Positions 12,954 through 37,812 of a DNA stretch of 40,598 nucleotides are shown in pieces. The first letter of the stretch is position 1; each line of letters opens with the position of its first letter. This stretch comes from a virus. Taxonomy: Duplodnaviria > Caudoviricetes. Under the pieces are notes generated by a model. That model had not been told where the DNA came from. It ran no database searches and saw nothing but the letters and a program-made list of their open reading frames with translations. A program made the translations under genes and the position numbers. The DNA lies in the IMG/VR virus record IMGVR_UViG_3300022698_000177, positions 1-40,598 of that record. One strand, 5' to 3'.

Positions 12954-13673
12954 TCAAGATAATAATCGACTTACATATTCTGCGTTTTTTCTTAGCTTGT
13001 CATGATAATCTGGCATGTATTCAAGAACTAATGTGCCGTTCCATTTGTATCGATTTTTTAAGTCTTTTACGAATCCAACCAAATTTAAATCGCCTTTTTC
13101 TGAATTGAAAGGTAGATGTTGTCCGTATTTTCTTGATCTATTTGATAGATGAATTACAGTTGTGTGATCCAAAAGGAACCCCATAATTTTATAATCAAAC
13201 CAAATGTCTTCAATGTGACTTGTATCGATACACATACTAACGTGAGGATAATATCGAATGCATTTATCAATTATTTCTAATGGACTTTTTAGTTCTTTTT
13301 TCTTCTTCCATTGAAAGGTTTCAATTGCTAATCTATATGGAACTGTTCCTGGATGCAATTTATTCTCTAAATAAAACATCAAGAAACGTTTAATATTTTT
13401 ATTCGGATGTATAATAAAATCAGTTGTTCCATAAGTATGATTCCATAATGCCATCAATGACAAAATTTCAGTTGGCTCTCTTTTTGTTGTATCTAAAGGA
13501 AGATGAAAAACAGGAACTTGTGTGCCAATTTTATTTAAAATTGTTAAGATGTATTCTTCTTGCTCTTTAAATCTATCGTATTTGTATGCTGCTAATTGAA
13601 TAGAGTCGGGAACTTCTTCTAATTTGTATCTATTATCTTCACCGAATCCATATGAGATTGCAACTCTTATCAT
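12954..13673 (-). CDS. Xylose isomerase-like TIM barrel (AP endonuclease 2 / sugar phosphate isomerase family)
   Basis: Metal-binding motifs LAIET, CIDTSH, IHLSN, QHLPF and LVLEY. Confidence 0.7.
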   Translation of the reverse strand: MIRVAISYGFGEDNRYKLEEVPDSIQLAAYKYDRFKEQEEYILTILNKIGTQVPVFHLPLDTTKREPTEILSLMALWNHTYGTTDFIIHPNKNIKRFLMFYLENKLHPGTVPYRLAIETFQWKKKKELKSPLEIIDKCIRYYPHVSMCIDTSHIEDIWFDYKIMGFLLDHTTVIHLSNRSRKYGQHLPFNSEKGDLNLVGFVKDLKNRYKWNGTLVLEYMPDYHDKLRKNAEYVSRLLS

Positions 13674-14578
13674 AGATAACGCCTTCCGTCAAATCCCCCA
13701 TGAATCCCTTTCCAATTTATGGCAATTGCTTCAGATGTATGTATTGATTCCTCATGACTGCATTTTACAATCCAATCGATAACCCCATCTATATTATCAA
13801 TTGATTTGGAAATTGATCTGATTGCATCTTCGACAAACATTGGGTTCTCTGCTGCAATTCTTCCAATTTCTTGTTCGTCAACCCTCTTTATGATTGGGTA
13901 TGGCAGGGTTGGTAAAACGCTTTCTACTTGTTCAATAATATCTTCAAGCCAAATGTAATTACTACCATTTGTATCGACCTCAACGATAATATCAGCAAAT
14001 GATCTTTGATTGTGAGGATAACCTTTTCCATCCAAAGCATTGCATAACTCAGCAGAACAAGGACAGTATGATGCGTATTGAATTTTTACTCCTTGAAAGA
14101 AACGATAATACCACTTTCTGATTTTCGTAACTTTATCAAGGTCTGTCATTTCAACATCATAAAGCTGACCTTCAAATCTGCAATTGTAATAAATTGGAAA
14201 TTCATTATCAGAGATTAATGACTTTCTTTTGATTGGTAATTTAAAATCGAATGTCATATATGCTGCTGATTTGCCTGGTTCACTGCTTTCTCCGACATTT
14301 TTAATCAGTTCTTCAAGTATCTGTTTTATCAGTAAACTTTTCAGTGGCAAATCAAGGTACGGTTTCAATGTAAGTAGGAGTCTCGACATTGAAATGCCTT
14401 TTATGTCTGCATCAAGACTTGTCCTTAATGCAACATTAGCTGTCATCTGATGGAACCCTCCATATTTTGATTCCAGCTTAAATGGCACTTGAACATTTTC
14501 AACTCCTACTTGCATGATAGGGAGTTTTACATTAGGTTCTGTACATTGTACATCAGGTAAACACTCACTTGTTGTCAT
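13670..14578 (-). CDS. folE2: GTP cyclohydrolase type IB (FolE2/MptA)
   Basis: PDVQ, VGVENV, KGISMSRL, CPCS, HNQRS, ENPMFVEDAIR and ESIH. Confidence 0.92.
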   Translation of the reverse strand: MTTSECLPDVQCTEPNVKLPIMQVGVENVQVPFKLESKYGGFHQMTANVALRTSLDADIKGISMSRLLLTLKPYLDLPLKSLLIKQILEELIKNVGESSEPGKSAAYMTFDFKLPIKRKSLISDNEFPIYYNCRFEGQLYDVEMTDLDKVTKIRKWYYRFFQGVKIQYASYCPCSAELCNALDGKGYPHNQRSFADIIVEVDTNGSNYIWLEDIIEQVESVLPTLPYPIIKRVDEQEIGRIAAENPMFVEDAIRSISKSIDNIDGVIDWIVKCSHEESIHTSEAIAINWKGIHGGFDGRRYL

Positions 14579-14845: not shown

Positions 14846-15252
14846 ACATCTAAATCCTCAGGATTGAAATGAAATGGCTGCTCTTCTTTTTCTGCTTCTT
14901 GTATCTTTTTAGCTTTCTGCTCTTCAGCCATTCTCATTTCAGCTTTTAGTGCCTCAATATCGAGATTTATTTTATCCATCTCAGCTTGCAACTCTTCTTT
15001 TACTCTGAGTGGTATTTTATATTTTGTTATCATATCATATTTCATTTCAATCTGTGGTTCGGGAATTTCTCTTTCTATACCAATGCATGTATCGAATCCT
15101 TCAGGAACTGTTGACGATGCATCACCAAATGGTTTTTGCATTAAATATTGGTCGAATACATTATTTGCTTTTATTGGTGTGTCAAGATATTTACTCACAA
15201 AATCTCTATCATTGTCTCCAGTTCCATAGAAATATTTATCTCTTGTGCTCAT
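14842..15252 (-). CDS. Hypothetical protein with C-terminal coiled coil
   Basis: 136-aa ORF translationally coupled to the RNAP beta stop. Confidence 0.7.
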   Translation of the reverse strand: MSTRDKYFYGTGDNDRDFVSKYLDTPIKANNVFDQYLMQKPFGDASSTVPEGFDTCIGIEREIPEPQIEMKYDMITKYKIPLRVKEELQAEMDKINLDIEALKAEMRMAEEQKAKKIQEAEKEEQPFHFNPEDLDV

Positions 15253-18251
15253 TTGTGTTCAACTCCTATGACTGTCAAATAGGAATTCATCAATTTAACT
15301 GATTCTGGAACCATATCCAATTCTTTCGAATCATCTGTCATTTGTGATTCAATAACGTTGCGAATGTAAGAGTTTTTCAAATCGATACAATCTGATTTGG
15401 TTGTTAAGAATTCATGTAGATTACAAGGAGCATCATGCCCGATCAAACATGCGGTTTCCATTTCACCACATCTCTGACCTCCCTTATTCTTTCTTCCTCC
15501 TAATGGTTGTAATGTTCTTCTGGCATATGCGCCAATCCCTCTTGCAGCTAATTTCTCTTCTGCAATATGAACCATACGGAAGAAGTAAATGTAACCAACC
15601 GCAATTCGATTGATCAATTCAACTTTAGAAACAGGATCTTGTATTTTGTATTTGAATTCAGCTCCTGTGTATTCCATTGCTGCTTCAACATGTTGTAATT
15701 TACATGATTGAAATGGAGCTTGGATGATCGTAAAATTTTCAATAAATTCTTTTGTTATCTTTTTTGGCATTTGTGTAACAAACTGTTCGGAATACCAATT
15801 CCCTTCGGTTTGATCAATTATATTAATGAATCCTAAAAGATATTTTTTAATTTCTTTTTGTGGAGCTTTATCATCAATCATTTGCAGAATATTTGTTTTT
15901 AATGTTTCCACTGCCATTGCTAAATGTAACTCATACAGCTGACCGATATTCATACGAGAGATTATACCCAGAGGATTGATACAAATATCCAAATGCCTTC
16001 CATCTGGTAATTGTGGCATTTTATCATGAGGAACAATTCTTGAAATCACTCCCTTGTTTCCATGTCGATTTGCCATTTTATCGCCAACCTTCACACGACG
16101 AAAGTGGACACCATACATTTCAACTTGAATGCCATTAATCTTTTCTCTCTTTTGTTTATATTTTCCAACAAACGAGAACTTATCAAGACCTTGTTCTCTT
16201 ATTGTTTTCATTGCCTGGTCTTTTGGCATAACTGATTTTAGGACCTTCTGAATATCTTTTTCTCGGTCCCTTTGATTTGCAAGTCTTTCTTCGACCCATT
16301 CTTTAAATTCTGGAACTTCCTCATTCCAATAGTTTCCAAACAAATTGACTTCTGAAATGATGAAATTCTTTTTTGCTTCCAATTGGACTGGTTCTGAAAA
16401 CACAGAGTAATGCTCATCTGAATTCAATTTCTTTAAGATTGCATATGGGTCGCCTGCATTAATTGTTTCAAGTTCATCAGGTAGTGGTTTGTATTTATCA
16501 TCTTCTAATGATAACAATACTTTATCAGGTGTAATTGTAAATGATAAATCCTTATAGTGAACAGATGTCAAAATATCTTCTTTTACTAATCTTTCGGATA
16601 TGACAATTCCATCCTCATAATTGTTTCCATAGTAGACCATCACACCTGTAAGTAAATTTCGACCAATGTTTATACAACCGTTTGTACAGAAATTGCTTTC
16701 TGCTAAGATATCGCCAGCTTTGAATTTGTCTCCGGGACTAACATAGATATTAAGAAAATCCATGTGTTCAACGTAAATTTTTCTGTAACGAATATCAAAA
16801 AGATCAGCTTCCCCATCTTCATACATAACAATAATGAAGTTTTTATCGATATGAACAACTTCACCATCTTTCTTTGCAACCTTTACGAATTGCGTATATG
16901 GAGTATATAATCCTTCTGACCCTGAACTGATCAATGGAGTATCGAACTCTCTTAACATGATTGCTTGTCGCATCTGAGATGATGCCATTTGTAATCTTGT
17001 TTGGTCGTCATGTTTTAAGAATGGAGTCATTGAAACTGGTATTGAAATTGGGTGTTTATCTTGTGTATCTCTGGAGAATTTTAGCTTCTCATCTAAATTA
17101 ACGTTGGCTACTAAATTCTGTAATACTCCACAGTTATCTCGGTCAGGAGTATCGACCGGACACAAACGACCATACATTGTTGGACAAATATCTCTCAAAT
17201 GCTTCGGAATATTTTCTCTCTTGAAACCGCCAGGACCAAGAAGACTGATTCTTGATAGTTTCGTTAATTCTTCAATTGGATTGATTGAAAAATCAAACTG
17301 AACAATATCTGATACATTGCACTCCGAAAGTATCTGCGTTGAATTGATATTGAATTTTGGTTGTCTTGAAGTTCTATTGGAAAAGCATAAATCAAAAATG
17401 ATCTTTGAAATTTTTGCAATTACAACATATTCAAAACAACGAACTCTTTTATTTGTGAAAAGGGTATCATCAATTGATCCTGTTTTAAGTATTTCTGATA
17501 ACTCTTCAAGAATTGATTCTTTTTCCATGAATTGTCTGGACAATAAATCAACTTTCGGAATCAGATCAATTGCGTAAATTATGTCTTCGCCTTTTGATTT
17601 TGCATTGTATTTCGAATATTTTCTTCCAAGTTCAAGAATAAAATCGTCAGTTGTGTAACCAATCGATTCATCACAATAAACTTTTAAGTCGTGCCTTAAT
17701 ATTTCATATAGATTATCACTTTCGGGATCGATTTCTTCTTCTAAATCGTATTTTTCTTTTACTTCTTCGATTCCATAATATGCAAGAAGCAGAAGACCAA
17801 AAGGAATTTTCTTTCCAAGAAAACTCACTCTGATAAATGGAGCTTCCTTGTCTTTGAATATCATTAAGGTTGCCACATTTGTTCTCAGCTTTATAGTTTC
17901 ACCCCTTGTTACAACTGGAATGTCGAAAAGCTGAAATAAAGGAATTTTTCTTCTTCCATTGATATAAACATAATTCCCATCAATCAATTTTGGTATGAAT
18001 ATGCTCAGATCAATTTCAGAGGATCCTTTTTGTAATTTAATTGCCAATGTTTGTTTTAGAGTTTTTGCTAACTCTCCCGATGAAAAGCGTGAATCTTTTA
18101 AATTAATCTCATTGATTTGAAAACCAATTTCTTCAACGGGTTTAACTATTTCTTCTACTAAAGGTAAAATCTGGTCATAATCAAGCTGACGAAGTGTGAA
18201 AATATTTCTTTCATCGTCATTTATTGCTGCAAGTGGATTAATTATTTTCAA
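15249..18251 (-). CDS. rpoB: Phage multisubunit RNA polymerase beta subunit
   Basis: YINGRR, LGPGG, YGRLCPVDTP, HDDQTR..MASSQMRQA, NYEDGIVISER, GDKMANRHGNKGVIS, NPLGIISRMNIGQ and GGQRCGEME. TTG start. Confidence 0.95.
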   Translation of the reverse strand: MKIINPLAAINDDERNIFTLRQLDYDQILPLVEEIVKPVEEIGFQINEINLKDSRFSSGELAKTLKQTLAIKLQKGSSEIDLSIFIPKLIDGNYVYINGRRKIPLFQLFDIPVVTRGETIKLRTNVATLMIFKDKEAPFIRVSFLGKKIPFGLLLLAYYGIEEVKEKYDLEEEIDPESDNLYEILRHDLKVYCDESIGYTTDDFILELGRKYSKYNAKSKGEDIIYAIDLIPKVDLLSRQFMEKESILEELSEILKTGSIDDTLFTNKRVRCFEYVVIAKISKIIFDLCFSNRTSRQPKFNINSTQILSECNVSDIVQFDFSINPIEELTKLSRISLLGPGGFKRENIPKHLRDICPTMYGRLCPVDTPDRDNCGVLQNLVANVNLDEKLKFSRDTQDKHPISIPVSMTPFLKHDDQTRLQMASSQMRQAIMLREFDTPLISSGSEGLYTPYTQFVKVAKKDGEVVHIDKNFIIVMYEDGEADLFDIRYRKIYVEHMDFLNIYVSPGDKFKAGDILAESNFCTNGCINIGRNLLTGVMVYYGNNYEDGIVISERLVKEDILTSVHYKDLSFTITPDKVLLSLEDDKYKPLPDELETINAGDPYAILKKLNSDEHYSVFSEPVQLEAKKNFIISEVNLFGNYWNEEVPEFKEWVEERLANQRDREKDIQKVLKSVMPKDQAMKTIREQGLDKFSFVGKYKQKREKINGIQVEMYGVHFRRVKVGDKMANRHGNKGVISRIVPHDKMPQLPDGRHLDICINPLGIISRMNIGQLYELHLAMAVETLKTNILQMIDDKAPQKEIKKYLLGFINIIDQTEGNWYSEQFVTQMPKKITKEFIENFTIIQAPFQSCKLQHVEAAMEYTGAEFKYKIQDPVSKVELINRIAVGYIYFFRMVHIAEEKLAARGIGAYARRTLQPLGGRKNKGGQRCGEMETACLIGHDAPCNLHEFLTTKSDCIDLKNSYIRNVIESQMTDDSKELDMVPESVKLMNSYLTVIGVEHK

Positions 18252-18253
18252 GT

Positions 18254-18439
18254 TTAAATCCCCCTATCTTTACAGAACTTTTTCAATGCTTCCTCTAGAT
18301 TTGAATCTTCGACATAATAAGGATCGCCATTGAATTCAATTACATTCATTAATAGTTGTGTTAGTCGAAGGTCTGGATACGCATACCAGACCTTCTTGAC
18401 TAACCCAATGATTCTTTCAATTCGTTCTGGTTCTCTCAT
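18254..18439 (-). CDS. Small DUF1040/YihD-like protein
   Basis: MREPERI...W..YPDLRLTQLL motif, common in phage small proteins. Confidence 0.6.
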   Translation of the reverse strand: MREPERIERIIGLVKKVWYAYPDLRLTQLLMNVIEFNGDPYYVEDSNLEEALKKFCKDRGI

Positions 18440-21144
18440 GTAATTCTTTCGCCCTTTAGAATCTTATCCATGACTCCTGAATAACGTCCTTCGTATAAGA
18501 TTCCTTGTAAGATTGATCGTTTTGGATTGGAGAATGCCATTGCAAGAATCCAACTTTCTTGATTTGGCACTGATTGAATACTGTAATAATCGGGTTCAAC
18601 TTTATCACGATCATCCAACAATCTCCATTTTTGATAATTTTTCCACATTAACTGCGCAACTACGCATTCAAAGTGAACATGATGTATATCTTTATCATAT
18701 ACCTCAAATAGTTCATGTACTATCATCGTATATGTCTTATTTTTAAATTTATGTAGTAACTGTGCTACTGATGCGAGATCGCCAATAATGTCTTTTTGTT
18801 TCATTGAAGATCCTGTATCGTCTGATTCTCCTTTGATGACTGCTGAACCAGATGTGTGAAATGTTCGGAGGACTAATTGTGTTCCTCTTTCACCCAATGT
18901 TTGTGCTGCCAGAATACCAATGAAACGACTATTCAGACTTTTATATAAATCACCATAGCATTTTTTGCATATCTTTGGAGATTTACATAAAATAGGACTT
19001 CTAATCTGAACAACTTTATTGACAATATCTTTGTAATTATCATGTGTAATTTTGAAAAACCCTTTTTCGTCTTCCGTTAAACACCAACGATTGACTAACA
19101 TTCGAGCTTTTCTTAGTGAATTAACATCTACTTCTAATGTATCTGTGGTACCACAATCTTCTAGATCTAAATCAATTTGTAAATTCGCACATGTGAAAAT
19201 TAATTTTCTTGATAGATATCCTGAGGTCCCTGTATTCAATGCAACATCAAGAAGACCTTTACGGCATCCATATGTTGAATAAAAGAATTCCTCTTGGGTT
19301 AATCCATCAACCAGCGAGTTCTTAATTGGTAATGGCAAAATCTCACCATCAAAATTTGAAATAAAACCACGAGCTAAGATTAGCTGTTTGACCTGATCCC
19401 AACTACCTCTTGCTCCTGATTCAATCATATATGAATATTTGAATTTTTCTCTTAACTCTTGAATTAATGTTGGATTTGAGAATGCAACTAATTGGTCTCG
19501 TATTTCATCATTTGCAAATATATGCTCTTTGATTTCACTTGCGCCTTCGACTGGGAAGTCTTGTAATGACATTGTGCAACCAAATAGAGTTGCATATTTG
19601 AATCCTTCCCTTTTGATATTATCTAAAACTTGAACAGTCACATCAAATGGATATTTGTTTTTAATATCATTGAGGACTTGGATTAACTCTTTCTTTCTCA
19701 AGATTCCTTCTACAACTGGATAATCTTCTGGTAATTGTTTGTTGAATTCTGCTTGACCTGCTAATATTTGTTTTCCTTTACATTCAACTTTTTCTTTTGA
19801 GAATCTTTCTGAAGTAAGGTAATAAATCCCCAAGATTATATCCTGACTTGGAGTTGTTGTCAAGTCTTCATTTGCTGGGCTGCTCAAATTTCTTGAAATT
19901 GAAATTTTCTTAATTATCTCTTCTTTTGCTTCAGTTGTTATCGGAATATACACTGCCATCTGATCTCCATCAAAATCTGCATTGAATGGAGGGCATACCA
20001 ACGGATGAATCTTGATAACTTTATCTAGTGTAATTAGTATCCTGAAACCAAGCATTCCGAGTTTATGGAGAGATGGTTGTCTGTTCAATACACAATACTC
20101 TCCATCAACTATCTCCTGACATACCTTCAGCAGTACAGGCGAGTCATTATCTATGCATTGATCCACAAAGTCAATTGCTTTATTCAACAATTTGAACTTT
20201 CCAAGTTGAATGATTCTTTTAGCAATTGGCAACTTAAATATTTCTAAGATCATCAAATATGGTAGTTTACATTCATCCAATGACAATGTTGGATCTGGAG
20301 TAATTACTGCTCTCCCTGAAAAATCAATTCTCTTACCAAGAATATTCCCCCGAATCAATCCTTCTTTCTTGGCCATTTTTTCAAGGATTCGTGTATATAA
20401 TTCACTGACATCTTTTTGCAACTGTTTGAAATATGTATAATACAATGCTTTATCTCGGTGAATATCAACAATTGTATCTCTCATAATTTCTTTTTTCGTT
20501 AATATCTGAACATAATAACGATTAATTTTATCCATCAATTGCTTTGTTTCACCAGAGCTCTTTGAGGTTGGTCTTAGATCAGGAGGAAGAACAATAATCT
20601 GATCTACCAATAAATTGTTTATATTATTCTTGATCAGACTCCACTCTGTAATACCTTCCTCTAACATCATATCAGCATAGCCTTCAACGAGAACTCTTAT
20701 CGCTTCCGCTCGTTCCCATTTTTCTGCATCTGACGGTATTTGATCCTCATTCAAAGTAACAGCGAAACCATTATCATCTGCGTATAAAACACTCTTATCG
20801 TTTCGCATTAAATCGTCAATTGCTTTCTTCAATATTTTACCGCCAATGTCTGCAAGAAGATCATAGAATAGTGGGTTGATAACAGGAATTGGCAATGTTA
20901 TTTTTGCAAATCTTTTTCTTCTTGCATCACTGTTAATAATATCAACTCCACATTCGGAACACTTTCCACCTGATTTTGACACACCATGATATATACCACA
21001 TTGGCATGTGTAATTTCTTACAGGTCCGAATATCTGCTCGGAGAATAACCCTTGTGGATGAAACTTCTTTTTACCGAATGTTTTTAGAGACGTCACTTCG
21101 TCTAAATTTTCACAAAATTTCTCATAATCTAATATCTTTGGCAT
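18436..21144 (-). CDS. rpoC: Phage multisubunit RNA polymerase beta' subunit
   Basis: GLFSEQIFGP, Zn motif CQC...CSEC, LPPDLRP, LGKRIDFSGRAVI, NRQPSLH, catalytic NADFDGDQMAV, bridge helix RKGLLDVALNTGTSGYLSRKL and trigger loop TQLVLRTFH. Confidence 0.96.
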   Translation of the reverse strand: MPKILDYEKFCENLDEVTSLKTFGKKKFHPQGLFSEQIFGPVRNYTCQCGIYHGVSKSGGKCSECGVDIINSDARRKRFAKITLPIPVINPLFYDLLADIGGKILKKAIDDLMRNDKSVLYADDNGFAVTLNEDQIPSDAEKWERAEAIRVLVEGYADMMLEEGITEWSLIKNNINNLLVDQIIVLPPDLRPTSKSSGETKQLMDKINRYYVQILTKKEIMRDTIVDIHRDKALYYTYFKQLQKDVSELYTRILEKMAKKEGLIRGNILGKRIDFSGRAVITPDPTLSLDECKLPYLMILEIFKLPIAKRIIQLGKFKLLNKAIDFVDQCIDNDSPVLLKVCQEIVDGEYCVLNRQPSLHKLGMLGFRILITLDKVIKIHPLVCPPFNADFDGDQMAVYIPITTEAKEEIIKKISISRNLSSPANEDLTTTPSQDIILGIYYLTSERFSKEKVECKGKQILAGQAEFNKQLPEDYPVVEGILRKKELIQVLNDIKNKYPFDVTVQVLDNIKREGFKYATLFGCTMSLQDFPVEGASEIKEHIFANDEIRDQLVAFSNPTLIQELREKFKYSYMIESGARGSWDQVKQLILARGFISNFDGEILPLPIKNSLVDGLTQEEFFYSTYGCRKGLLDVALNTGTSGYLSRKLIFTCANLQIDLDLEDCGTTDTLEVDVNSLRKARMLVNRWCLTEDEKGFFKITHDNYKDIVNKVVQIRSPILCKSPKICKKCYGDLYKSLNSRFIGILAAQTLGERGTQLVLRTFHTSGSAVIKGESDDTGSSMKQKDIIGDLASVAQLLHKFKNKTYTMIVHELFEVYDKDIHHVHFECVVAQLMWKNYQKWRLLDDRDKVEPDYYSIQSVPNQESWILAMAFSNPKRSILQGILYEGRYSGVMDKILKGERIT

Positions 21145-22850: not shown

Positions 22851-23459
22851 TTAGCATCCGGGTTCCTGTTGTGTAACCCAGGTACGTGGTGCTTCTGGTT
22901 GGCAGATTGGTTCTGTGAAGATACTGCACTCACGAAGAGCTTTCATTTCTTCTGGGCCAACTGCCTCCGGTAGATATTGTGATTTATATTTGAATAATGA
23001 ATTCGTCAATCTTATCGGATAGCTTAGCGGAAGATTGAAATAATACTTCTTATATTTATCGCCCGGATTTTGAACTGTCCTGATTCTTGTTGTCGGGTCG
23101 ATTTGTCTCAACTCTTCAGTTACAAGCTCTCTGAATGTGAGTTCATCATCAAAAGTTTTGATTTTCAATCTTCGTCTGACGAGTTCATCATCCCGTGCCG
23201 CTGCTCTGATTTTAAGATCATTCGTCTTATGGATTAAAGCCTTCAATGCACGACCGAATGCTTTTTGTTTACCCTTCTTTTTTGAGAATGAATCTTTTAG
23301 TGAACAAATGGCAACGCCACGTGCTTCAATTCTGCCCAAACGTGTATTGATGAATAGACACGCTGTGAATACATTATCCACAATTGGGCTTCTGGAACCA
23401 TAAAAGGCGATCTTATCAACCCCATTTGCTTCCAGAATTCGATTTGTTTTTTCGTTCAT
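22851..23459 (-). CDS. Hypothetical phage protein
   Basis: 202 aa. GVAICSLKDSFSKKKGKQKAFGRA matches a recurrent phage motif (G.A.C...D.F....G...A..RA). Confidence 0.7.
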   Translation of the reverse strand: MNEKTNRILEANGVDKIAFYGSRSPIVDNVFTACLFINTRLGRIEARGVAICSLKDSFSKKKGKQKAFGRALKALIHKTNDLKIRAAARDDELVRRRLKIKTFDDELTFRELVTEELRQIDPTTRIRTVQNPGDKYKKYYFNLPLSYPIRLTNSLFKYKSQYLPEAVGPEEMKALRECSIFTEPICQPEAPRTWVTQQEPGC

Positions 23460-23471
23460 ACTTCCGCCTTT

Positions 23472-23504
23472 CTGAAGGGGGCCTGGCGACCCAGACCCCC
23501 TCAG
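23472..23504 (-). terminator. Hairpin directly after the Ubl gene
   Basis: CTGAGGGGGTCTGG-GTCG-CCAGGCCCCCTTCAG on the - strand. No U-tract. Confidence 0.45.
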
Positions 23505-23508
23505 GTTT

Positions 23509-23988
23509 TTATCCCTTTTTGCCGGCAGGCTTCAGGAACTCCAGATTATCGCCCGCTTGAAGGACGTAATCTTCCCCTACTTGCTTGCCGTTGACCAGGC
23601 CGGTGGAGAGGCGATCCACGTTCAGAACTTCACGTAGAAATTCACCGACTTCCTTGACCTGCTTTCCGGCGACTGGGAAGTTACCGGAAGAGGCACCACA
23701 CGACACATGAATGGTCGTGGTGGTCCGATCACCGAACTTGGCGCTCGGTTTGGTCAGGACGCTTTGGGCCTTGAATTCGATTCCGGTGACCTTTCCGCTA
23801 TCTGCTGCGGTCGCTGCGGGCTTGGAGATGGTGGCTTCGGATCCGGCACCGTATTTGGCCAGGATGGCGTCGACCACTTCCGCCTTCAGCTTTTTGGACA
23901 TTCCCGGAAGACCCAGCTCGTGGGAGCACATTCTTTTGAGCTCTTTGTCGGTTTTGGCCTCGAGTTGTTCGCGTGTGAAATTACCCAT
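23509..23988 (-). CDS. Ubiquitin-like (beta-grasp) protein with N-terminal Rho-N/HeH-like domain
   Basis: C-terminal ~70 aa IHVSCG...LVNGKQVGEDYVLQAGDNLEFLKPAGKKG ending in Gly. N-terminal L...TDKELKRMC..LGL.G.SK..KAEVVDAIL. Lies immediately downstream of the E1. Confidence 0.85.
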   Translation of the reverse strand: MGNFTREQLEAKTDKELKRMCSHELGLPGMSKKLKAEVVDAILAKYGAGSEATISKPAATAADSGKVTGIEFKAQSVLTKPSAKFGDRTTTTIHVSCGASSGNFPVAGKQVKEVGEFLREVLNVDRLSTGLVNGKQVGEDYVLQAGDNLEFLKPAGKKG

Positions 23989-24010
23989 GGTACAATTTCT
24001 CCTTTTCTTT

Positions 24011-24706
24011 TTACTTCACGATTCGAATTTTTGCGTCTGAAGACATATTCAACATATCGAAATATACCTCAGAGCGTTCGTACTCACCTCTCACAACCGC
24101 GTTGTAAAAGGTCCAACACATGAGGGTAGCAACCCCCAAATTTGCAAAATATAATTGCGGGTCTGACTGTGAAAGTTCTTCACACGACATTTCTTCCGGT
24201 AACTTATCGTCAGGGTTTGCAATTTCCGGGTGATACGCACACAAGTCCGGAGTTAAATCTTCCCCATCTTTCCGGATGTATAGTTGCACATTACCATCGG
24301 TAAATTCATTCCCACCAGAGATTAAGGTAACATCTTTTAATTGTTTACAGTAATTTGAAACTATCATTCTGGTTTTGTGATTGTCTACACATAAGAATAC
24401 TATGTCTTCCTCTTTAACAACGTCTTTTATATTAGCTTCGTTGACATAGAATTCTGCAGCATCAAATGGCAGAGTTGGGAACTTCATCGATAGCTCAGTT
24501 GCTTTAATGTCAGCTTTGTTACCAATTCGACCAAACTCCTGTCTTACATAATTCTTCTGTTCATATTCGTCCCCATCAACTAGAAGAATTTCTGCCGTAA
24601 GATCATCTGCATAATTTAAGAACCTACATAGTCTTTCTGCTAGAATAGAACCAACACCACCGAGTCCAATAATCGTGATATAGAGCTGTTTTACATCAGT
24701 TGTCAT
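24011..24706 (-). CDS. ThiF/E1-like ubiquitin-like activating enzyme
   Basis: IIGLGGVGS, LVDGDEYEQKNYVRQ, NKA, CVDNHKTR, ISGGN and MSCEE (candidate catalytic Cys). Confidence 0.9.
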   Translation of the reverse strand: MTTDVKQLYITIIGLGGVGSILAERLCRFLNYADDLTAEILLVDGDEYEQKNYVRQEFGRIGNKADIKATELSMKFPTLPFDAAEFYVNEANIKDVVKEEDIVFLCVDNHKTRMIVSNYCKQLKDVTLISGGNEFTDGNVQLYIRKDGEDLTPDLCAYHPEIANPDDKLPEEMSCEELSQSDPQLYFANLGVATLMCWTFYNAVVRGEYERSEVYFDMLNMSSDAKIRIVK

Positions 24707-26291
24707 GATCGCTACCTCCCCCGAATGCTCTTCTGAACATTTCTCTCAGTTTGCTTTCTTTCTTCTCGGGGATAGGAATAGAATTTGACCCGGGTTCTGG
24801 AATCCTCTCAATAGTTTCATCTGCTTGTCTTGCGGCCTCCAAAGCAGCTTGATTAGCTTCTTCTGCTTCTGCATCTAGCAATGCTCCTGAGTCTCTTTCG
24901 CTTTGAGCCTCTAGGTCTGCTTCGGTTGAATATTCGTTGCTGATTGGAGTTTGGCAGAAAGGGCAAATGGAATCATCACCATCAATAAGATGATAACCAC
25001 TACCACATGCTTTACATGTAACAAATCCGGATTTTCTTGCTTGGCCATCCATCACTGCTACATCATCGAATCCTGCATATTCAAATGCATCACCTTTGAT
25101 ATAATTTTCAACTAAAACTTCATCCCGATCAAGTTGGACGAGATGTTCATCAGTCAAACATCCAAGGCATTGCAGGATAGTCCCTTCTTCCTCCTGAACT
25201 ACTTGACCACATTTCTTACATAGATAATATTCATCATAATCTTCATCATTGATTTCATCAATGATTTTACATTGTCTGTGGACGCATGTCACACAAGGAA
25301 CCATTTCTCCATCTGCATTGTGGGGAGGAAATGCAGCTGGATTTGTTTTTGCAGCTGGACCGACATTGTAGGGCGATGTCTTACCTGTAGCAACTGGAAG
25401 ATTCTTTCCTGTCTGTGCCCAATAACTGCTATCATAATGTTTACCCCAACCTCCATAATAACCACCGTGTCCATAGAATCCGCTTTGCCATCCACCACGG
25501 TAGCTCTTGTAGGTATATGTCCCGCGCTCGACCATATTCATCCACTTTTTATTGAAAATTCGGTCGCGGTCTGATACCATTACATCATAACGACGATCAT
25601 ATTTCTTTGTATAATAATATGCAGCACCTTCTACTTTTTTATCAATAACCAGTTCTCCATTTTCCCACTTATAAGTTGTGGTAATGGATTTGTTTTTATC
25701 GACTGGGTTAGTTTCCTGCATCAATACAATATCTTCAATATAATCAGACGGATGGACTACAATACGATGTCCATTTGCTACGATTGATGCGGATATGCTT
25801 GGATAGGGATCGTTTAAATGACCCAATGTAATATGAAGACCATCAAAGTGTTCTTCATCTGAATCATCAACACCCGAGTGAAATGCTGACATGCTTCCAT
25901 GACTATGAATTGTTCCGATCATGGTATAACCTGAAATAGTAATTCCCTTATCATAATCACACGATGCCCCTGCTACTTTTTGTGTCGGGGGAATTATTTT
26001 ATGGTGTCTTGTTTCTTCATTGTAAAATAATAGAACTATAGCTTCGGATCTGTATTGTCGATAGACCTCTTTGAAGAAACTGTGGGTTTTTGCAAGCCAT
26101 TTTCCAGGAATTCTGGAAATATGCATGGTAGCTGTTGCTGCAATACTATCTAATATTGAGATATTTTTGACGGGCGCGATGCTCTCCATAATGCCGAGTT
26201 TCTTTTTGAGAAACACACCCTCTTTTGCAATGATGTAACAAATATCATCATCGGGTAATGGACTTCCATCATTCAGGACTACATTGAACAT
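24696..26291 (-). CDS. JAB/MPN+ metallo-isopeptidase with C-terminal zinc ribbons
   Basis: SEAIV (catalytic Glu) and JAMM motif GTIHSHGSMSAFHSGVDDSDE. C-terminal CxxC pairs (CVTC, CKKC/CLGC, CKAC/CPFC). Confidence 0.88.
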   Translation of the reverse strand: MFNVVLNDGSPLPDDDICYIIAKEGVFLKKKLGIMESIAPVKNISILDSIAATATMHISRIPGKWLAKTHSFFKEVYRQYRSEAIVLLFYNEETRHHKIIPPTQKVAGASCDYDKGITISGYTMIGTIHSHGSMSAFHSGVDDSDEEHFDGLHITLGHLNDPYPSISASIVANGHRIVVHPSDYIEDIVLMQETNPVDKNKSITTTYKWENGELVIDKKVEGAAYYYTKKYDRRYDVMVSDRDRIFNKKWMNMVERGTYTYKSYRGGWQSGFYGHGGYYGGWGKHYDSSYWAQTGKNLPVATGKTSPYNVGPAAKTNPAAFPPHNADGEMVPCVTCVHRQCKIIDEINDEDYDEYYLCKKCGQVVQEEEGTILQCLGCLTDEHLVQLDRDEVLVENYIKGDAFEYAGFDDVAVMDGQARKSGFVTCKACGSGYHLIDGDDSICPFCQTPISNEYSTEADLEAQSERDSGALLDAEAEEANQAALEAARQADETIERIPEPGSNSIPIPEKKESKLREMFRRAFGGGSDHDN

Positions 26292-28887
26292 TGATTATGC
26301 TCCTCTCATCTTGCATGAATCTGTAAGGTGAAGTGTCACAGGTAAAGTAGTAACCGTGGAAGTTTGGCCACGCGCTTATTGTTTCGGATTCAGATTGTGC
26401 TTTACCTGTTACTCTTGGCGTTGGAATATAATCCAATCTTGTATTTACTTCCAAATATTTGTCGAGAGTAAAATAATCTACATGTTGGGTGTAATTCGAA
26501 AGTTGCATGGCTTTATTTCCTCTAAATCCATGAACCTTGAATACAAACCACCCATAATCATTAACATGATCATCAGTACCCTGAATAATATCACCGGGCT
26601 GGTATTTGATTTTTGAAATATCGATTGGTGCGTGTTTCAGCGATGCCCATTTTTTAGATTTCATTGTTGTCTTCGAGAATTTCTCCATGACATCGCTATA
26701 CCATAATGTACAACAATTGGAGCAAAGAACCAATGGTTCTGGTCCGCCTGTATCTGTTAAGAAACCAACAATGATATTAACATCTTTCTTTGGAAAGTGT
26801 GCAATACCTGTTTCACGGGCCTTAATCTTCGTTCCTGCTCTCAATCCTTCATATTCATTTGTGATCTTTCTTACTTTTCCAATATTAACAACACCACTGG
26901 ATTCAATGTATCTAACTGTATGAATATTTTCTTGTTTATCTTGCATAATGATATCTACATCGCCAGACAACTCATGGATTGTAAATCCCTGAATAGTTTT
27001 TACAGAAAGCATATTTGTGGGGTTTACCCAATCTGACACGACAACTTTGTCGCCAATTTTGAACTCGATGTCTAAATCAAATGAAGGAATGAATATACTA
27101 TCTTCTTTCATAATATCGTCTCGTATTTGACCTGGCGACGGTCGTCTCATACCTCTATAGTTTGGATCATAAGTAACTCCGTAAGGAGTTCCGTATGCGA
27201 TTTCATACTGAAGTCCGCTTGGTTTTTCACGAACAGCCATTAGCTTTCTTCCAATACGAAAAACACCAGGAAGAGGTTTGCAGTTATCCACCTTCATTAT
27301 TTTATAACGATCAGACGATGGACCATCAATAGGAATTGTGAAATCTCCAGATCTAACATGTTCATCGGTATGTTCAAATGAAAATACCAATCTTCCAAAT
27401 CTTGAGACGTCAATTCCTTTGTAAGTCATAACGCTAGCATCTACCAATGGTAACTCATTCCTCGGTGAAGTAGTAATCAAATATGCCTCATTCTTGTTTA
27501 ATTGTACTCCATCATAGACTGGCTTTTCTACATCAAATATTTCTCCATCTAGATTTTCAACAATATAGAAAGAATCTCCGAATCTTCCTTCGTGGACCCC
27601 TTCTTGTGTCTTTCTTATAAAAGAAACTTTCTTGTATGATTTTGATCCGAGTTTGGTTTTGACAACAACAATGTCGTTCTCCTTAACTTCAATTCCATTT
27701 TTCATTGTTGCTTTTTCAACGAATCGTAACTCTTTTGTTTTCTGCATCAAGAACTTTTCAAACTTCTTTGTGTTCTTGAATAGAATCAACTTTCCATCTT
27801 CTCTTTCAACTCGGATGTATTTTATATCACCAGACCCATCGGTTGTAAAACCAATCAATGAGTTAATATAACATAATTCTTTTCCATTCTTGATGTAGAA
27901 TGGATCTCCAACGTGAACATAATATTGTGAGTCGATAAACATCCCTTCAGCTACATCATAATAGAGGCGATGTTTTCTTCTTGATCTTTTTGATAATGGT
28001 TCATCTCTTCCTGTATCACCTGGAATAACAAACATGTCAGAAAGAGTTTTATATCTTATGTCATGGAGTGCGGTTAACTTATAATTTCTTTTTATCTCGT
28101 CTATAGCGTCCCCAATTGTCATTGGGATTTTGACCCAACCAACATTGTAAATAAACATCGGGTCTCTTTGAGATAAAGCATGCCATTCCATGAATGAATT
28201 AACTCCAGCTATATTCTCGTATGCTTTAATATTATATGTGTAATCTGAATTGAATTCGGCAGACCAAAATGATGTAATTGCTTGATCAACCGCAGCATTC
28301 AAACTTTTTGGAAACCCCATGTGTGCTTGATCGCCAAAACAGATATACTGGGCATCAGATATATTGGGGAATGGAGCTTTCATAAGATAATCAGCCATAC
28401 CCGCAATTCTAGCAACTCTGAAATATATTTGACCTGCGCCTAATTTGAAGTCATTATTTATATAAAGGAAGAATACACAATAAGGCAAAGCTAGAGTAAA
28501 TCTTTTAACTACATTGTCTTCATTGAAATATTCATCATATCCATATTCTTCAAGAAGACCTTTTTCTTCTAACTTTTTTACTTCGTCCTTCAAATCTCTT
28601 CTAAGACTGATTGTTCGAAATGCAGGCGGTTCCTCCACAACAACAATAGTTCCGTCATTGACTTTTTCGAGATAACGGCAATTTGGAGGAAGAATAAGAG
28701 ATGTCATACCTGCTGTTTTTTGCATCATCTTCTGTAGATAATCTCTTGTTAGAATGCTTTGCTTTTTAACTATTGGTGTTGAATCAGCCTGTAATTCATC
28801 TTCCACCGATTCGTCATAATCATAATCTGAACTATATCTGTGAGCATACCTTGCATTGATTCGAATTTCATCCTGCATTATCGTCAT
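26269..28887 (-). CDS. Prokaryotic E2 (family D/PRTRC-B-like) domain fused to long beta-rich C-terminus
   Basis: VVEEPPAFR, LALPYCVF, APFPNISDAQYICFG (candidate catalytic Cys) and FWSAEFN. First gene of the E2-JAB-E1-Ubl run. Confidence 0.75.
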   Translation of the reverse strand: MTIMQDEIRINARYAHRYSSDYDYDESVEDELQADSTPIVKKQSILTRDYLQKMMQKTAGMTSLILPPNCRYLEKVNDGTIVVVEEPPAFRTISLRRDLKDEVKKLEEKGLLEEYGYDEYFNEDNVVKRFTLALPYCVFFLYINNDFKLGAGQIYFRVARIAGMADYLMKAPFPNISDAQYICFGDQAHMGFPKSLNAAVDQAITSFWSAEFNSDYTYNIKAYENIAGVNSFMEWHALSQRDPMFIYNVGWVKIPMTIGDAIDEIKRNYKLTALHDIRYKTLSDMFVIPGDTGRDEPLSKRSRRKHRLYYDVAEGMFIDSQYYVHVGDPFYIKNGKELCYINSLIGFTTDGSGDIKYIRVEREDGKLILFKNTKKFEKFLMQKTKELRFVEKATMKNGIEVKENDIVVVKTKLGSKSYKKVSFIRKTQEGVHEGRFGDSFYIVENLDGEIFDVEKPVYDGVQLNKNEAYLITTSPRNELPLVDASVMTYKGIDVSRFGRLVFSFEHTDEHVRSGDFTIPIDGPSSDRYKIMKVDNCKPLPGVFRIGRKLMAVREKPSGLQYEIAYGTPYGVTYDPNYRGMRRPSPGQIRDDIMKEDSIFIPSFDLDIEFKIGDKVVVSDWVNPTNMLSVKTIQGFTIHELSGDVDIIMQDKQENIHTVRYIESSGVVNIGKVRKITNEYEGLRAGTKIKARETGIAHFPKKDVNIIVGFLTDTGGPEPLVLCSNCCTLWYSDVMEKFSKTTMKSKKWASLKHAPIDISKIKYQPGDIIQGTDDHVNDYGWFVFKVHGFRGNKAMQLSNYTQHVDYFTLDKYLEVNTRLDYIPTPRVTGKAQSESETISAWPNFHGYYFTCDTSPYRFMQDERSIINVQCSPE

Positions 28888-29279: not shown

Positions 29280-29606
29280 TTACTTTTTGGACTTTTTAGT
29301 ATAGAATCTTCTGGTTGGTGTGTCCATATATTCAACGCGTTCGAATGAAACAGATCTCCATCCCTTTTTATCCAAATCATAAACATGCATGATTTTGTTT
29401 TTCTGAATTAGTTTCAAGATTTGTGGGATGTTTACCGATTTTGGTTTGTCAGGTTCTGGTATTTTTGTAAAATCCAGAGTTGCTCTCATAATACGATCTG
29501 TTCCATCTTTCTTTTTGAACTTGATCATTACTTCTTTTTCATCATATACTTTTTTCCAGAATTGTAATGCACTAACAATGACATCACTATCGATTGGTTC
29601 TGCCAT
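29280..29606 (-). CDS. WYL_2/Sm-like SH3-fold phage protein
   Basis: KFKKKDGTDRIMRATL...VYDLDKKGWRSVSFERV. Confidence 0.7.
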   Translation of the reverse strand: MAEPIDSDVIVSALQFWKKVYDEKEVMIKFKKKDGTDRIMRATLDFTKIPEPDKPKSVNIPQILKLIQKNKIMHVYDLDKKGWRSVSFERVEYMDTPTRRFYTKKSKK

Positions 29607-29609
29607 AAT

Positions 29610-30653
29610 TTACCCCCGTTTGTCGGAATGAACTAAATCTCCGACTGCATCTTTCTTTTCATTCAGATGTTTACTCATCATCAAACAGGAGTGATTGCAT
29701 CGTTTACAATAATGGACTTTATCAAAACCGATGGCATAGTATATCTTTTTTGATAACAATTCTGGGTGTGCTGGGTCAAACAACTCCGTTACGTTGAATG
29801 TTGGAGCTGACACCCCTCTTATTCTTAAACATAATCTAATTGTGCCATCTGCATCAATTGATAAATTGTGAATTCCTTTATCCAATTCACAATCAAAGTT
29901 TGATGGTAGAGTATTGAACATCCAAGGAATCAATACTTCCTTCATATGAACATATAAATCCTTGTCCTGCATTATATTGTTTAATGTTAAAGCTAAATCG
30001 AATGTTGGATATACAAGCGACCAATTGTTTCTAATATTTGAAAAATCATAATATGGACTTTTTCCACGATCAACAAATGTTATGTCGCTATATATTTCTT
30101 CATCGCTTAATTCGGAAATTAATTGATGCAACAAATGTTGATTGTGAGCCATTACTGTGATCTCTGCTACAACATCTTTTACTTTGCCGCTTGCTTGAAT
30201 TTCTTTCAGTCGTTTCAACCCTTCAATACTTTTTGTGATACGGTCTTCTGTCACTCCATACTCATTGAATATTGGATCGACTGAACTTGTAAATCCATCG
30301 ACATAATCTGTTTTTTCAAATAGCTTTTTTATGAGAGGTTGGATCTCCGGTGTGTTGTTGCTAATGATTGTATAGAAAATTTGATTCTCATTACAATAAT
30401 TAACAATATCAGGTAGATCTGGTCTTAGAAGCGGCTCACCTCCATAAAATATATGAAACATATTCGGATTATGAATCTTCATTCTTCTGAGAGTATCAAT
30501 GACAACTTCTGTTGGCATTTCATTTCTAATATAATGTTTCATATCAGGATACTCTCTTGGTTTGTCTTCATAATCACGAACGATTGCGCAATAATCACAA
30601 GTCAAATTACATTTTCTTGTGAGAAGCCAATTTACTATTTGGACTTTACTCAT
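29610..30653 (-). CDS. Radical SAM protein with C-terminal SPASM/twitch-like Cys motif
   Basis: CNLTCDYC, YGGEPLLR, and C-terminal C...IDADGTIRLC...CKRCNHSC. Confidence 0.9.
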   Translation of the reverse strand: MSKVQIVNWLLTRKCNLTCDYCAIVRDYEDKPREYPDMKHYIRNEMPTEVVIDTLRRMKIHNPNMFHIFYGGEPLLRPDLPDIVNYCNENQIFYTIISNNTPEIQPLIKKLFEKTDYVDGFTSSVDPIFNEYGVTEDRITKSIEGLKRLKEIQASGKVKDVVAEITVMAHNQHLLHQLISELSDEEIYSDITFVDRGKSPYYDFSNIRNNWSLVYPTFDLALTLNNIMQDKDLYVHMKEVLIPWMFNTLPSNFDCELDKGIHNLSIDADGTIRLCLRIRGVSAPTFNVTELFDPAHPELLSKKIYYAIGFDKVHYCKRCNHSCLMMSKHLNEKKDAVGDLVHSDKRG

Positions 30654-35977: not shown

Positions 35978-37375
35978 CTATTCACCTCGCAAAATTTGAT
36001 ATGCCACTTCTCTGTCTATTTTGTTTAGCTTTCCTTTTCCATACATGAAATATTGAACTGGCCATTTCTTTTGATCATAATAATACTCTCTACGATAATA
36101 TGTTTTGGCCATATCTTCACATCCATAATCAACCAGATCTATAATTATGGGAGTTTGTTTATTCGGAGCTGTTCTAGTTATTCTTCCAGTTAATTGCTCA
36201 ATGTTTGAAATTGGAGATGTCATAATCAACGAATCTTTCCAAGGCGCATCAATACCGTCTCGACATTTACCTGGTGTCGCAAATGTCAATTTTGAATTCA
36301 ATGTTTCAAGGCCGCCCGCCCCACAAAATTTTGCTTTACTTTTTGATGGTGCCCAATTGTATAATTCGTCAATTAATTTTATTCTTTCAGATATACAAAT
36401 CAAATCCCGACTCTTTAATTTTGCTAATAACGCTCTCATTACTTCTTGAAACGGTTTTGATTTTTTTATTAGATTAAGATACCTTGCCCTCTGGAACTCA
36501 CCAGCCCATCGAATATACTTAGATCTGCGTGGTGTATCAATCTGATAATCAACAAGGATAACTGTAACCCTTGCATTCATTGTTCCTTCGATGTCACTAT
36601 CTGAAAATATATCTCCGAGGTGAAATTCAATAATATCTCCATTACCATCAAATCTATATGGAGTTGCACTTAACCCATATGTGTATTTGCTTGGCATATG
36701 AATTGAACATTCTGAAAATGTTGGTGCTCCGACCGATGTATGAACTTCATCTGCAACAAACACTCCGATGTTTGCTTCATTTAATTTAACTAAGAAATCT
36801 TTACGATTTCTTTTCAATAATGATATATATGTTTGGACTGTTGCAATGATAACCGGTTTGTCCAAATCATCCATAAATGTCGAAGAAGTCAACCTAGCAA
36901 TATCATCATCTTGCAGGTTTGTAAATTGCTTTAATCTATTTCTCCATTGTTTCGAAAGATCGTCACGATGGACTAAAATCAACGCTTTTCTTTTTCTCTC
37001 AGCAATCATATAGATTGAAATAACAGTTTTTCCAACTCCAGGTGCTAATTGTAATGTCGCTGCTTCATTCGACATTATATAGTTTATTGCTTTTTCTTGT
37101 GCTTCACTTCTGGGTGTTATATTATGTGTAATGTCAATCTCTTGGCCTTCATGACGAACATCACGAATATGATAATCAAATGTATATTGTTGAATCGGAA
37201 AGTTCCTTGGGATTAAAAGGAACTTTTCCGACTCAATGTAAAATGTATTTACAATGTAATTTGATGAATTGTACGCCTTTGTACGTCTTTGAAGGAACTC
37301 TTTGATTTTAATATAAAAATCTTCGTATTGATGTTCCTTTGAGATTAACAACCCAGATCTTCTGACGATTTCCAT
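35978..37375 (-). CDS. Superfamily 2 helicase (UvsW/XPB-like)
   Basis: PRSEAQ, LAPGVGKT, DEVH, GLSATPYR, GID and EQLTGRITR. Confidence 0.9.
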   Translation of the reverse strand: MEIVRRSGLLISKEHQYEDFYIKIKEFLQRRTKAYNSSNYIVNTFYIESEKFLLIPRNFPIQQYTFDYHIRDVRHEGQEIDITHNITPRSEAQEKAINYIMSNEAATLQLAPGVGKTVISIYMIAERKRKALILVHRDDLSKQWRNRLKQFTNLQDDDIARLTSSTFMDDLDKPVIIATVQTYISLLKRNRKDFLVKLNEANIGVFVADEVHTSVGAPTFSECSIHMPSKYTYGLSATPYRFDGNGDIIEFHLGDIFSDSDIEGTMNARVTVILVDYQIDTPRRSKYIRWAGEFQRARYLNLIKKSKPFQEVMRALLAKLKSRDLICISERIKLIDELYNWAPSKSKAKFCGAGGLETLNSKLTFATPGKCRDGIDAPWKDSLIMTSPISNIEQLTGRITRTAPNKQTPIIIDLVDYGCEDMAKTYYRREYYYDQKKWPVQYFMYGKGKLNKIDREVAYQILRGE

Positions 37376-37812
37376 TAGGCTATACTGAATGTCGCCTTGG
37401 AGTTTTCATTTTCAAAAACTGTTACATAATCAAGAGTGAGAGATTCGTTTTTGGATCTTAACCTTAGATCAGTGATTCTGTTTTCGATTCTGCGAAATAT
37501 TTCTTCAGACATTTTTTCTGCTGTTGGCTCATATGGAACTGGGATTACTTTTAACTTCAATTTATTCATGTATTCGATTGTTTTTTCATCAATATCGTTG
37601 ATCATAAATGCATGATCCAAAACATCGAATATCAATCCCAATTCTGCTTTTAAATGAGAAAAGTCAATAATCATACCATTCTCATTTAAAGATGTTGCTT
37701 TCAATCCAACTAAGACGACATAATTGTGCCCATGAAAATTGAAGCATGCTCCATCGTGTTTACACAACCTATGTCCCATTGGAAATGTGAAACGTTTTTC
37801 TAATCTATACAT
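37375..37812 (-). CDS. queD: 6-carboxy-5,6,7,8-tetrahydropterin synthase (QueD/PTPS)
   Basis: GHRL, C..FHGHNY, GMIIDF, LDHAF, PTAE and FENENS. Confidence 0.9.
   Translation of the reverse strand: MYRLEKRFTFPMGHRLCKHDGACFNFHGHNYVVLVGLKATSLNENGMIIDFSHLKAELGLIFDVLDHAFMINDIDEKTIEYMNKLKLKVIPVPYEPTAEKMSEEIFRRIENRITDLRLRSKNESLTLDYVTVFENENSKATFSIA

Follow-up and report, generated by a model that had tools for sequence, protein, structure and literature searches.

Four co-oriented genes on the minus strand of a 40,598-nucleotide stretch of viral DNA (Duplodnaviria; Caudoviricetes; IMG/VR record IMGVR_UViG_3300022698_000177, positions 1 to 40,598; the whole stretch is hereafter the window) encode an E2-like protein, a JAB/JAMM peptidase (JAB), a ThiF-type E1 and a ubiquitin-like protein (Ubl). 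We propose, with about even confidence, that they form the phage's own Ubl conjugation cascade, which would tag phage transcription or replication proteins during infection. Thioester-based Ubl conjugation by this block is in itself likely, since the residues it needs are all invariant, Ubl pro-forms exist and sister systems are reported to run the same chemistry (PMC11601596, PMC10097602, PMC11601603). An original prediction, made from the sequence alone, had described the four neighbouring genes, and all of them are open reading frames in the positions it gave. Beyond that prediction, we found Ubl pro-forms, a Rho-N-like domain in the Ubl, a ~600-residue E2 extension with SH3-like barrels, and a second ThiF gene followed by a gene for a small protein with an HPN motif and a Cys (the HPN-Cys protein).

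In the surveyed literature, work on bacterial Ubl conjugation deals either with host immunity against phages (CBASS, Bil) or with biochemistry (Bub), and with nothing else. The PRTRC cassette (NCBIfam TIGR03735-03738), which we infer to be operon type 6d of Iyer, Burroughs and Aravind (2006, PMC1779556), was predicted in that year and has stayed a prediction. The parts of the block are of known kinds and similar phage cassettes have been annotated; yet an elaborated cascade kept by a phage lineage beside its polymerase reverses the usual host-defence picture. That a phage lineage keeps so elaborated a cascade as a fixed, mostly vertically inherited block by its RNA polymerase genes points to a role in the phage cycle.

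Conserved motifs and predicted folds of the four proteins

All the motifs quoted in the original prediction are present: PNISDAQYICFG, containing C183, in E2; the JAMM residues in JAB (E83 and H129-x-H131-x7-S139-x2-D142); GLGGVG and SCEE (C175) in E1; and PAGKKG directly before the Ubl stop codon. Residue counts refer to distinct viral sequences drawn from 82 loci. The JAB residues E/H/H/S/D are kept in 70/70 sequences. JAB matches Prok-JAB (E 8e-5, under the Pfam cut-off) and PRTRC_A (1e-10, likewise under cut-off), and its N-terminal extension aligns with PRTRC_A from residue 19 and has no invariant Arg or Trp. E1 is a single 231-aa ThiF adenylation domain without the IAD-AAD-CYS layout. 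It passes the Pfam cut-off for ThiF (E 2.7e-19) and matches PRTRC_ThiF at 1.7e-10, under the cut-off. Its adenylation residues and C175 are kept in 69/69 sequences, and the other crossover Cys, C156, in 43/69 only. The four proteins match no PADLOC model beyond generic E1 stretches.

C183 of E2 is kept in 66/69 sequences (the other three have gaps), with N175 upstream and no HPN motif. The window E2 matches Prok-E2_D at E 1.9e-4, under the Pfam cut-off, and 46 of 55 aligned relatives match this profile (E<=0.01). Among the top 50 structural matches of the E2 model (mean pLDDT 88), 12 span residues ~57-263, every one of them an E2/UEV entry (Z 4.6-5.6). Together with Prok-E2_D, they agree with the earlier suggestion that the Cys lies in a UBC-like region. 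Most of the remaining matches fall on SH3-like barrels at 388-452 and 677-754, which resemble BAH/Tudor/KOW folds. The E2/UEV entries came from the second of two aligners; in a Foldseek search with the full model, Spt5/DSIF chains rank first and no E2 is among the matches listed. A tblastn search with the E2 domain gave no plasmid match and one weak phage match. Mean identity is 0.50 in the UBC domain and 0.25 in the variable region 456-590. It reaches 0.56 in residues 591-770 (window 26578-27117), the most conserved part of E2, which holds an invariant PLxLCSN motif with Cys722.

For the Ubl (mean pLDDT of the model, 67), 49 of the top 50 structural matches, for the most part ubiquitin, MoaD, SUMO and TGS entries, fall on the C-terminal domain (~88-159; Z 4.9-6.0), in line with the beta-grasp fold that had been predicted. 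Foldseek gives a similar list in which every match has E>0.001. Residues 4-50 match the Rho N-terminal domain (Z 5.8, root-mean-square deviation 2.1; one of the top 50). This domain is mildly basic, and the Rho_N profile is matched by 60/121 Ubl family members. TGS is matched by 105/121 members, ThiS by 49/121 and Prok_Ub (PF14454) by 0/121; PRTRC_C does not match this two-domain protein, and a PDB sequence search with the Ubl profile gave no significant match. The structural aligner warns that Z < 8 may reflect a common arrangement. With Z of 4.6-6.0 for the UBC and beta-grasp matches, the predicted folds therefore lean on the consistency of the matches and on the motifs.

The Ubl Gly is kept in 69/71 locus sequences. 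Of these 71, 43 end in Gly and 12 in an added Cys, several have other or longer tails, and 8 were unparsed. The ends of 120 close relatives are Gly-Cys (83), Gly (34) or Gly with another residue added (3), and longer tails past the Gly are found in distant relatives. Most close relatives are thus predicted to make the Ubl as a Gly-Cys pro-form. BilA is reported to be similarly cut one residue before its end (PMC10557695), and the variable tail past the invariant Gly would supply JAB with a job, as described there for BilA. The GC content at third codon positions (GC3) of the Ubl gene is 0.64, against 0.21-0.35 in 15 other window genes, and is the highest of the six block genes in 64/74 loci. 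Together with a Shine-Dalgarno-like sequence at the gene and a hairpin 3' of it in 65/67 loci, this points to high expression.

The block is fixed beside RNA polymerase genes in a phage subclade

Sixty-eight loci were retrieved with the Ubl profile; 53 complete loci represent 50 different beta' sequences, as some genomes are repeated. The gene order is the same across these related phages: E2, JAB, E1, Ubl, second ThiF and small HPN-Cys protein follow one another in 56/56 assessable loci, those with enough upstream DNA. The other 12/68 end at contig edges and agree as far as they reach. As these loci had been picked by their Ubl, we also searched in reverse from beta' (12/64 parts of the collection, best 80 loci kept). 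Among the best 80, 32 loci have a beta' identity of at least 39%, and 23 of the 32 have at least 8.4 kb upstream. Where beta' identity is at least 57% and at least 8.4 kb lie upstream, all four genes are present in 15/15 loci.

Pairwise distances over 50 loci track those of beta' (Spearman coefficients: E2 0.83, Ubl 0.81, E1 0.78, JAB 0.61), as for genes that are, mostly, vertically inherited. The same comparison gives 0.95 for rpoB, 0.70 for the radical SAM gene, 0.49 for the second ThiF and 0.34 for the small protein. The block lies in a core region of the phage, as had been proposed, with terminase, RNA polymerase beta and beta' and SbcCD in the window. The window does not show the lifestyle of the phage, and we have dropped the label "lytic" that the original prediction gave it.

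The locus continues with a second ThiF and the small HPN-Cys protein

The four genes had been called a complete operon. All four are there, but the locus is larger than described: in 68/68 loci they are followed by a second ThiF and then by the small HPN-Cys protein. The second ThiF retains GxGxxG, D35, K58 and D100 and has an invariant tail, ending in TGAA in 117/120 close relatives. Its Tyr138 is invariant, the crossover Cys is not conserved and a MoeB-type RQ is absent. Read by eye, the tail suggests a beta-grasp fold; it has no Atlas match and no likeness to the Ubl by profile (probability 0.2). In the 120-aa HPN-Cys protein, H56, N58 and C67 are each kept in 70/70 sequences, which corresponds to an E2-type HPN motif plus Cys. 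It is likely a minimal canonical-type E2, with weak profile support: two of its three matches in a PDB search are E2s, both weak (E 0.5 and 1.2), and UQ_con is matched by only 2/140 family members. Its Atlas model is poor and has no E2 match, and a profile comparison with the large E2 gave no resemblance.

The second ThiF and the HPN-Cys protein are likely an E1/E2 pair in their own right. We also considered a eukaryote-like heterodimeric E1 made of the two ThiF proteins. This was ranked lower because the second ThiF keeps the motif, residues and tail listed above, and because 4 distant loci have ThiF2-like and mini-E2-like genes but none of the main four (TGAA end absent, weak scores). Two weak-scoring pairs of this kind were seen upstream of beta' in distant polymerase relatives that lack the main four genes (L193, L195).

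Proposed mechanism and candidate targets

We infer the chemistry and the target class from these conserved features and from analogy. JAB would trim the pro-Ubl after its invariant Gly, which is already exposed in the window genome. E1, presumably as a homodimer, would adenylate this Gly and form a thioester at Cys175, from which the Ubl would be handed to Cys183 of the family-D E2. The array of SH3-like barrels in E2 would then select the target, and a lysine isopeptide would be formed; no E3 gene was seen. JAB could later take the tag off. A tagged target would thereby gain a basic Rho-N-like domain, so the tag may act as a nucleic-acid tether and not as a degradation signal.

Phage transcription and replication proteins are the targets we favour, on evenly balanced confidence, over host proteins, sulfur transfer and competing phages. 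Our reasons are the fixed place beside the polymerase genes, the largely vertical descent and the phage-specific add-ons that resemble modules of nucleic-acid machinery. A bolder version is co-transcriptional tagging, in which E2 with its Spt5-like array would ride the phage polymerase and reversibly attach the Rho-N-bearing Ubl to polymerase or transcription factors, and a second, Cys-less E1-Ubl fusion would pass its Ala-ended tail to the canonical-type mini-E2. We regard this version as distinctly doubtful; if true, a bacterial virus would be using ubiquitin chemistry for regulation in the manner of eukaryotes.

Several observations weigh against a family-D cascade that acts on phage proteins. 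The His downstream of the E2 Cys, which defines family D and is called absolutely conserved in type 6d (Iyer et al. 2006, PMC1779556), is Asp215 here (65/69 E2s; 1 Glu, 3 gaps), and two plasmid PRTRC_B-like proteins have His at the aligned position. With Z<8 the fold scores are modest, and C183 is a candidate catalytic Cys. The Spt5 likeness of E2 has TM-scores of 0.05-0.17 and may be that of any chain built from SH3-like barrels. At a beta' identity of 39-54% and with at least 8.4 kb upstream, 1/8 loci has all four genes within 10 kb; one of the other seven lacks an E2 match, four have weak second-pair matches only, and two have none of the six genes within 10 kb. The 48 more distant polymerase loci among the best 80 show no match to the block, which is therefore fixed in a subclade and not in every polymerase-bearing phage. 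Supported splits conflict with the beta' tree in 2/23 cases for E1 and 7/33 for E2. RefSeq annotates a full PRTRC cassette in the 39-kb Ralstonia phage Dina, so that the tie to a multi-subunit polymerase is not general; a strict link between operon and polymerase was rejected. Counting in favour, the lytic phage Arash makes related E1, JAB and E2 proteins during infection, as detected by liquid chromatography-mass spectrometry with 2-5 peptides each (PMC10585845 Table 2; assigned via the supplement numbering, with the number of E2 inferred from gene order). As that proteome lists 116/252 proteins, this is evidence of expression, not of packaging. Nothing points directly to any target, and the literature searched shows no measured activity for any PRTRC/6d operon.

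The same chemistry could instead serve against the host, with host RNA polymerase, ribosome or defence factors being tagged, or with JAB stripping host Bil/CBASS conjugates (counter-defence or takeover). Host conjugation systems are reported to work against phages (PMC11601596, PMC10097602), PRTRC protein B is described as a diversification hotspot in a gut prophage (2026 preprint, 10.64898/2026.10.01.756045), and E2 region 456-590 is variable, with low identity relative to the UBC domain. We consider host targets unlikely, if the strongest of the alternatives. Residues 591-770 of E2 exceed even the UBC domain in conservation, and a fixed position with largely vertical descent is unlike typical accessory counter-defence genes. 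Of the two possibilities raised by the original prediction, tagging of the phage's own proteins is thus favoured and tagging of host defence factors less so, because the block order is fixed and mostly follows the RNA polymerase tree.

The Ubl could also carry sulfur or acyl groups (thiocarboxylate, CysO/ThiS-like) to modify a small molecule, tRNA or DNA, perhaps together with the neighbouring radical SAM enzyme, and no protein would then be tagged. Its family is nearer the TGS and ThiS models than Prok_Ub, its recurring Gly-Cys end resembles CysO-Cys, 56/68 loci have a radical SAM gene three genes upstream, and QueD and FolE2 are in the window. However, the Ubl is always accompanied by an adjoining E2 with its invariant Cys, and minimal operons on contigs of metagenome-assembled genomes (MAGs) retain E1, Ubl, and E2 and/or JAB without a radical SAM gene. 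The original prediction had noted the lack of a sulfur-transfer context, and rhodanese, desulfurase, ThiG and MoaE were indeed unmatched among the 41 window proteins scanned (two short end open reading frames lay outside the scan). We find a carrier role improbable. Slightly less probable again is a Bil-like weapon for superinfection exclusion, in which virion proteins of co-infecting phages would receive the Ubl: phage tail proteins are what Bil attaches its own Ubl to (according to the summary in PMC11601596) and related cassettes are carried by phages and plasmids, but E1 architecture and gene order differ from Bil, the block has a core location, and the Rho-N-like and SH3-like add-ons fit nucleic-acid machinery better.

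Features of the window

The window has a GC content of 34%, and its minus strand carries nearly all genes. It contains a terminase, a tape-measure-like gene, SbcCD, a helicase, a topoisomerase subunit and both large subunits (beta/beta') of a multi-subunit RNA polymerase, and no tRNA genes. The window comes from a large tailed phage and is mReC-like in a general sense (PMC7481178): Pfam/NCBIfam scans place beta and beta' on one tailed-phage contig together with a terminase. Related contigs are up to 277 kb long. From E2 through JAB to E1 each reading frame overlaps the next, and the Ubl gene follows E1 after a gap of 22 nt (Table 1). PRTRC E/F and ParB have no NCBIfam/Pfam match in the window, and the flanking 126-aa and 202-aa genes have no family assignment. 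A WYL_2/Sm-like protein (108 aa; window 29280-29606) is encoded two genes upstream of E2 in 56/68 loci. FolE2, QueD and the radical SAM gene hint at a pathway for 7-deazaguanine modification of DNA.

Table 1 Position and properties of the block, its neighbours and selected genes in the window
Feature	Position	Strand	Properties
E2, 872 aa	26269..28887	-	Predicted family-D UBC-like domain ~62-272, C183, FWxxxFNxD; then ~600 mostly beta residues including SH3-like barrels 388-452, 677-754
JAB/JAMM peptidase, 531 aa	24696..26291	-	E83, H129, H131, S139, D142; long C-terminal part with conserved CxxC pairs
ThiF-type E1, 231 aa	24011..24706	-	Adenylation residues intact; crossover Cys175 invariant
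Ubl, 159 aa	23509..23988	-	Rho-N-like helical domain 4-50, linker, predicted beta-grasp 88-159, C-terminal Gly159
Hairpin	23472..23504	-	Directly past the Ubl stop codon; -27.7 kcal/mol; U tract absent
202-aa protein without family assignment	22851..23459	-	Optional: detected in 24/68 loci
Second ThiF-domain protein, 286 aa	21930..22790	-	Tyr138 invariant, crossover Cys not conserved, TGAA end
Small HPN-Cys protein, 120 aa	21568..21930	-	HPN-x8-C invariant
RNA polymerase beta'	18436-21144	-	Family matches; downstream of block in 68/68 loci
RNA polymerase beta	15249-18251	-	Family matches; downstream of block in 68/68 loci
FolE2	13670-14578		Family matches
QueD	37375-37812		Family matches
Radical SAM gene	29610-30653		Family matches

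Comparison with known systems

The block is a variant of the predicted PRTRC/6d operon type, neither a strict member nor Bil. The earlier label "PRTRC/Bil-type" is supported in its first half, by the component set and the below-cut-off PRTRC_A and PRTRC_ThiF matches; its second half is not supported, given the short E1 that lacks IAD-AAD-CYS and the PADLOC result. PRTRC/6d operons likewise have a separate Ubl, JAB, ThiF-type E1 and family-D E2, the latter with a conserved Cys and no HPN His. The order E2-JAB-E1 equals B-A-ThiF of phage Dina, and the Ubl end G-x-K-G is shared. Unlike PRTRC, the window E2 has Asp for His, and the Ubl lies outside the Prok_Ub/PRTRC_C family and is not small and standalone. 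The 600-aa E2 extension, the Rho-N-like domain of the Ubl and the CxxC pairs of JAB also set the block apart, as do its fixed place beside the phage RNA polymerase and the second ThiF and small E2-like gene that follow.

A PRTRC cassette in Burkholderia phage AB2 has been interpreted as a partitioning cassette (2026; PMC13366799). Our literature search, which left most subscription papers outside its scope, brought up no account of a conjugation operon run by a phage, and in it neither phage PRTRC cassettes nor the related operons of cultured large phages were read as conjugation systems. The main text of the mReC paper (Weinheimer and Aylward 2020, PMC7481178) does not mention ubiquitin, ThiF or JAB, and that of PMC7824862 does not mention JAB or ThiF.

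Bil types I and II resemble the block in having Ubl, E1, E2 and JAB without an E3, and a Ubl with a short C-terminal extension (PMC10557695). In contrast, BilD has the IAD-AAD-CYS layout and the window E1 one adenylation domain, the gene order differs, and Bil is a host defence (same source). The single ThiF domain also departs from the E1 by which Bil types I and II are recognised (PMC11601596). Bub is marked by an E2 Ser, an E1 Tyr and a DUF6527 protease; the main E1 and E2 of the block have Cys, and DUF6527 is unmatched. The second pair comes nearer to Bub and to CBASS Cap2. Where a crossover Cys would be, the second ThiF has an invariant Tyr, which it shares with BubD (PMC11601596), and Cap2 is reported to show that conjugation through a C-terminal Ala can occur (PMC10097602), the tail of the second ThiF being likewise Ala-ended. 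Unlike in Bub and Cap2, the partner of the second ThiF has HPN-Cys and not Ser, DUF6527 is absent, and the ThiF carries the tail as part of its own chain.

Minimal operons of the same subfamily occur on MAG contigs (L090-L093, L095, L096, L098, L099), with a Ubl of 70-85 aa, an E2 of 216-239 aa and no add-ons. One of these Ubls ends in Ala, at a locus with a second large E2-like gene that apparently lacks the Cys motif. Three archaeal or bacterial MAG contigs (L088, L089, L094) carry the phage block with SbcC/radical SAM genes, and L088 and L094 also polymerase genes. These are probably binned phage DNA and therefore indicate no reliable host.

Related operons are found in the cultured large phages Arash, Vibrio D69, Bacillus WH1 and KLEB27-3; Edson, D148 and D181 also matched. 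The first four share with the block an E2_D with the same FNxD motif, which sits where the two plasmid PRTRC_B-like proteins have His, a JAB, an E1 with crossover Cys and a Ubl ending xKG. They differ in a short E2, in a Ubl that is single (Arash) or in 3-5 tandem repeats (poly-Ubl), and in that a second pair was not seen. Their E1s form a separate, long-branched clade from the window E1 (support 100/99; 16/30 inner branches unresolved). The poly-Ubl precursors have five Prok_Ub repeats in WH1 (L016:778-1677) and four in KLEB27-3 (L019:718-1425), and Vibrio D69 has a three-repeat form (L017:2385-3176); each repeat ends xKG. Their genes precede E2_D, JAB and E1, and that of WH1 is annotated as a virion structural protein. 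The gp251c annotation of Salmonella phage Arash (OQ632216; L018 102-320) appears to follow the wrong frame. The likely Ubl is an overlapping 66-aa open reading frame (L018:107-307) that ends in TGTKG and has a ribosome-binding site and a terminator-like sequence, giving a previously unrecognised operon Ubl-E2-JAB-E1. Through cultured lytic phages with related operons, one of which has a published proteome and a Ubl annotated in error, the function of this whole operon type can be tested directly.

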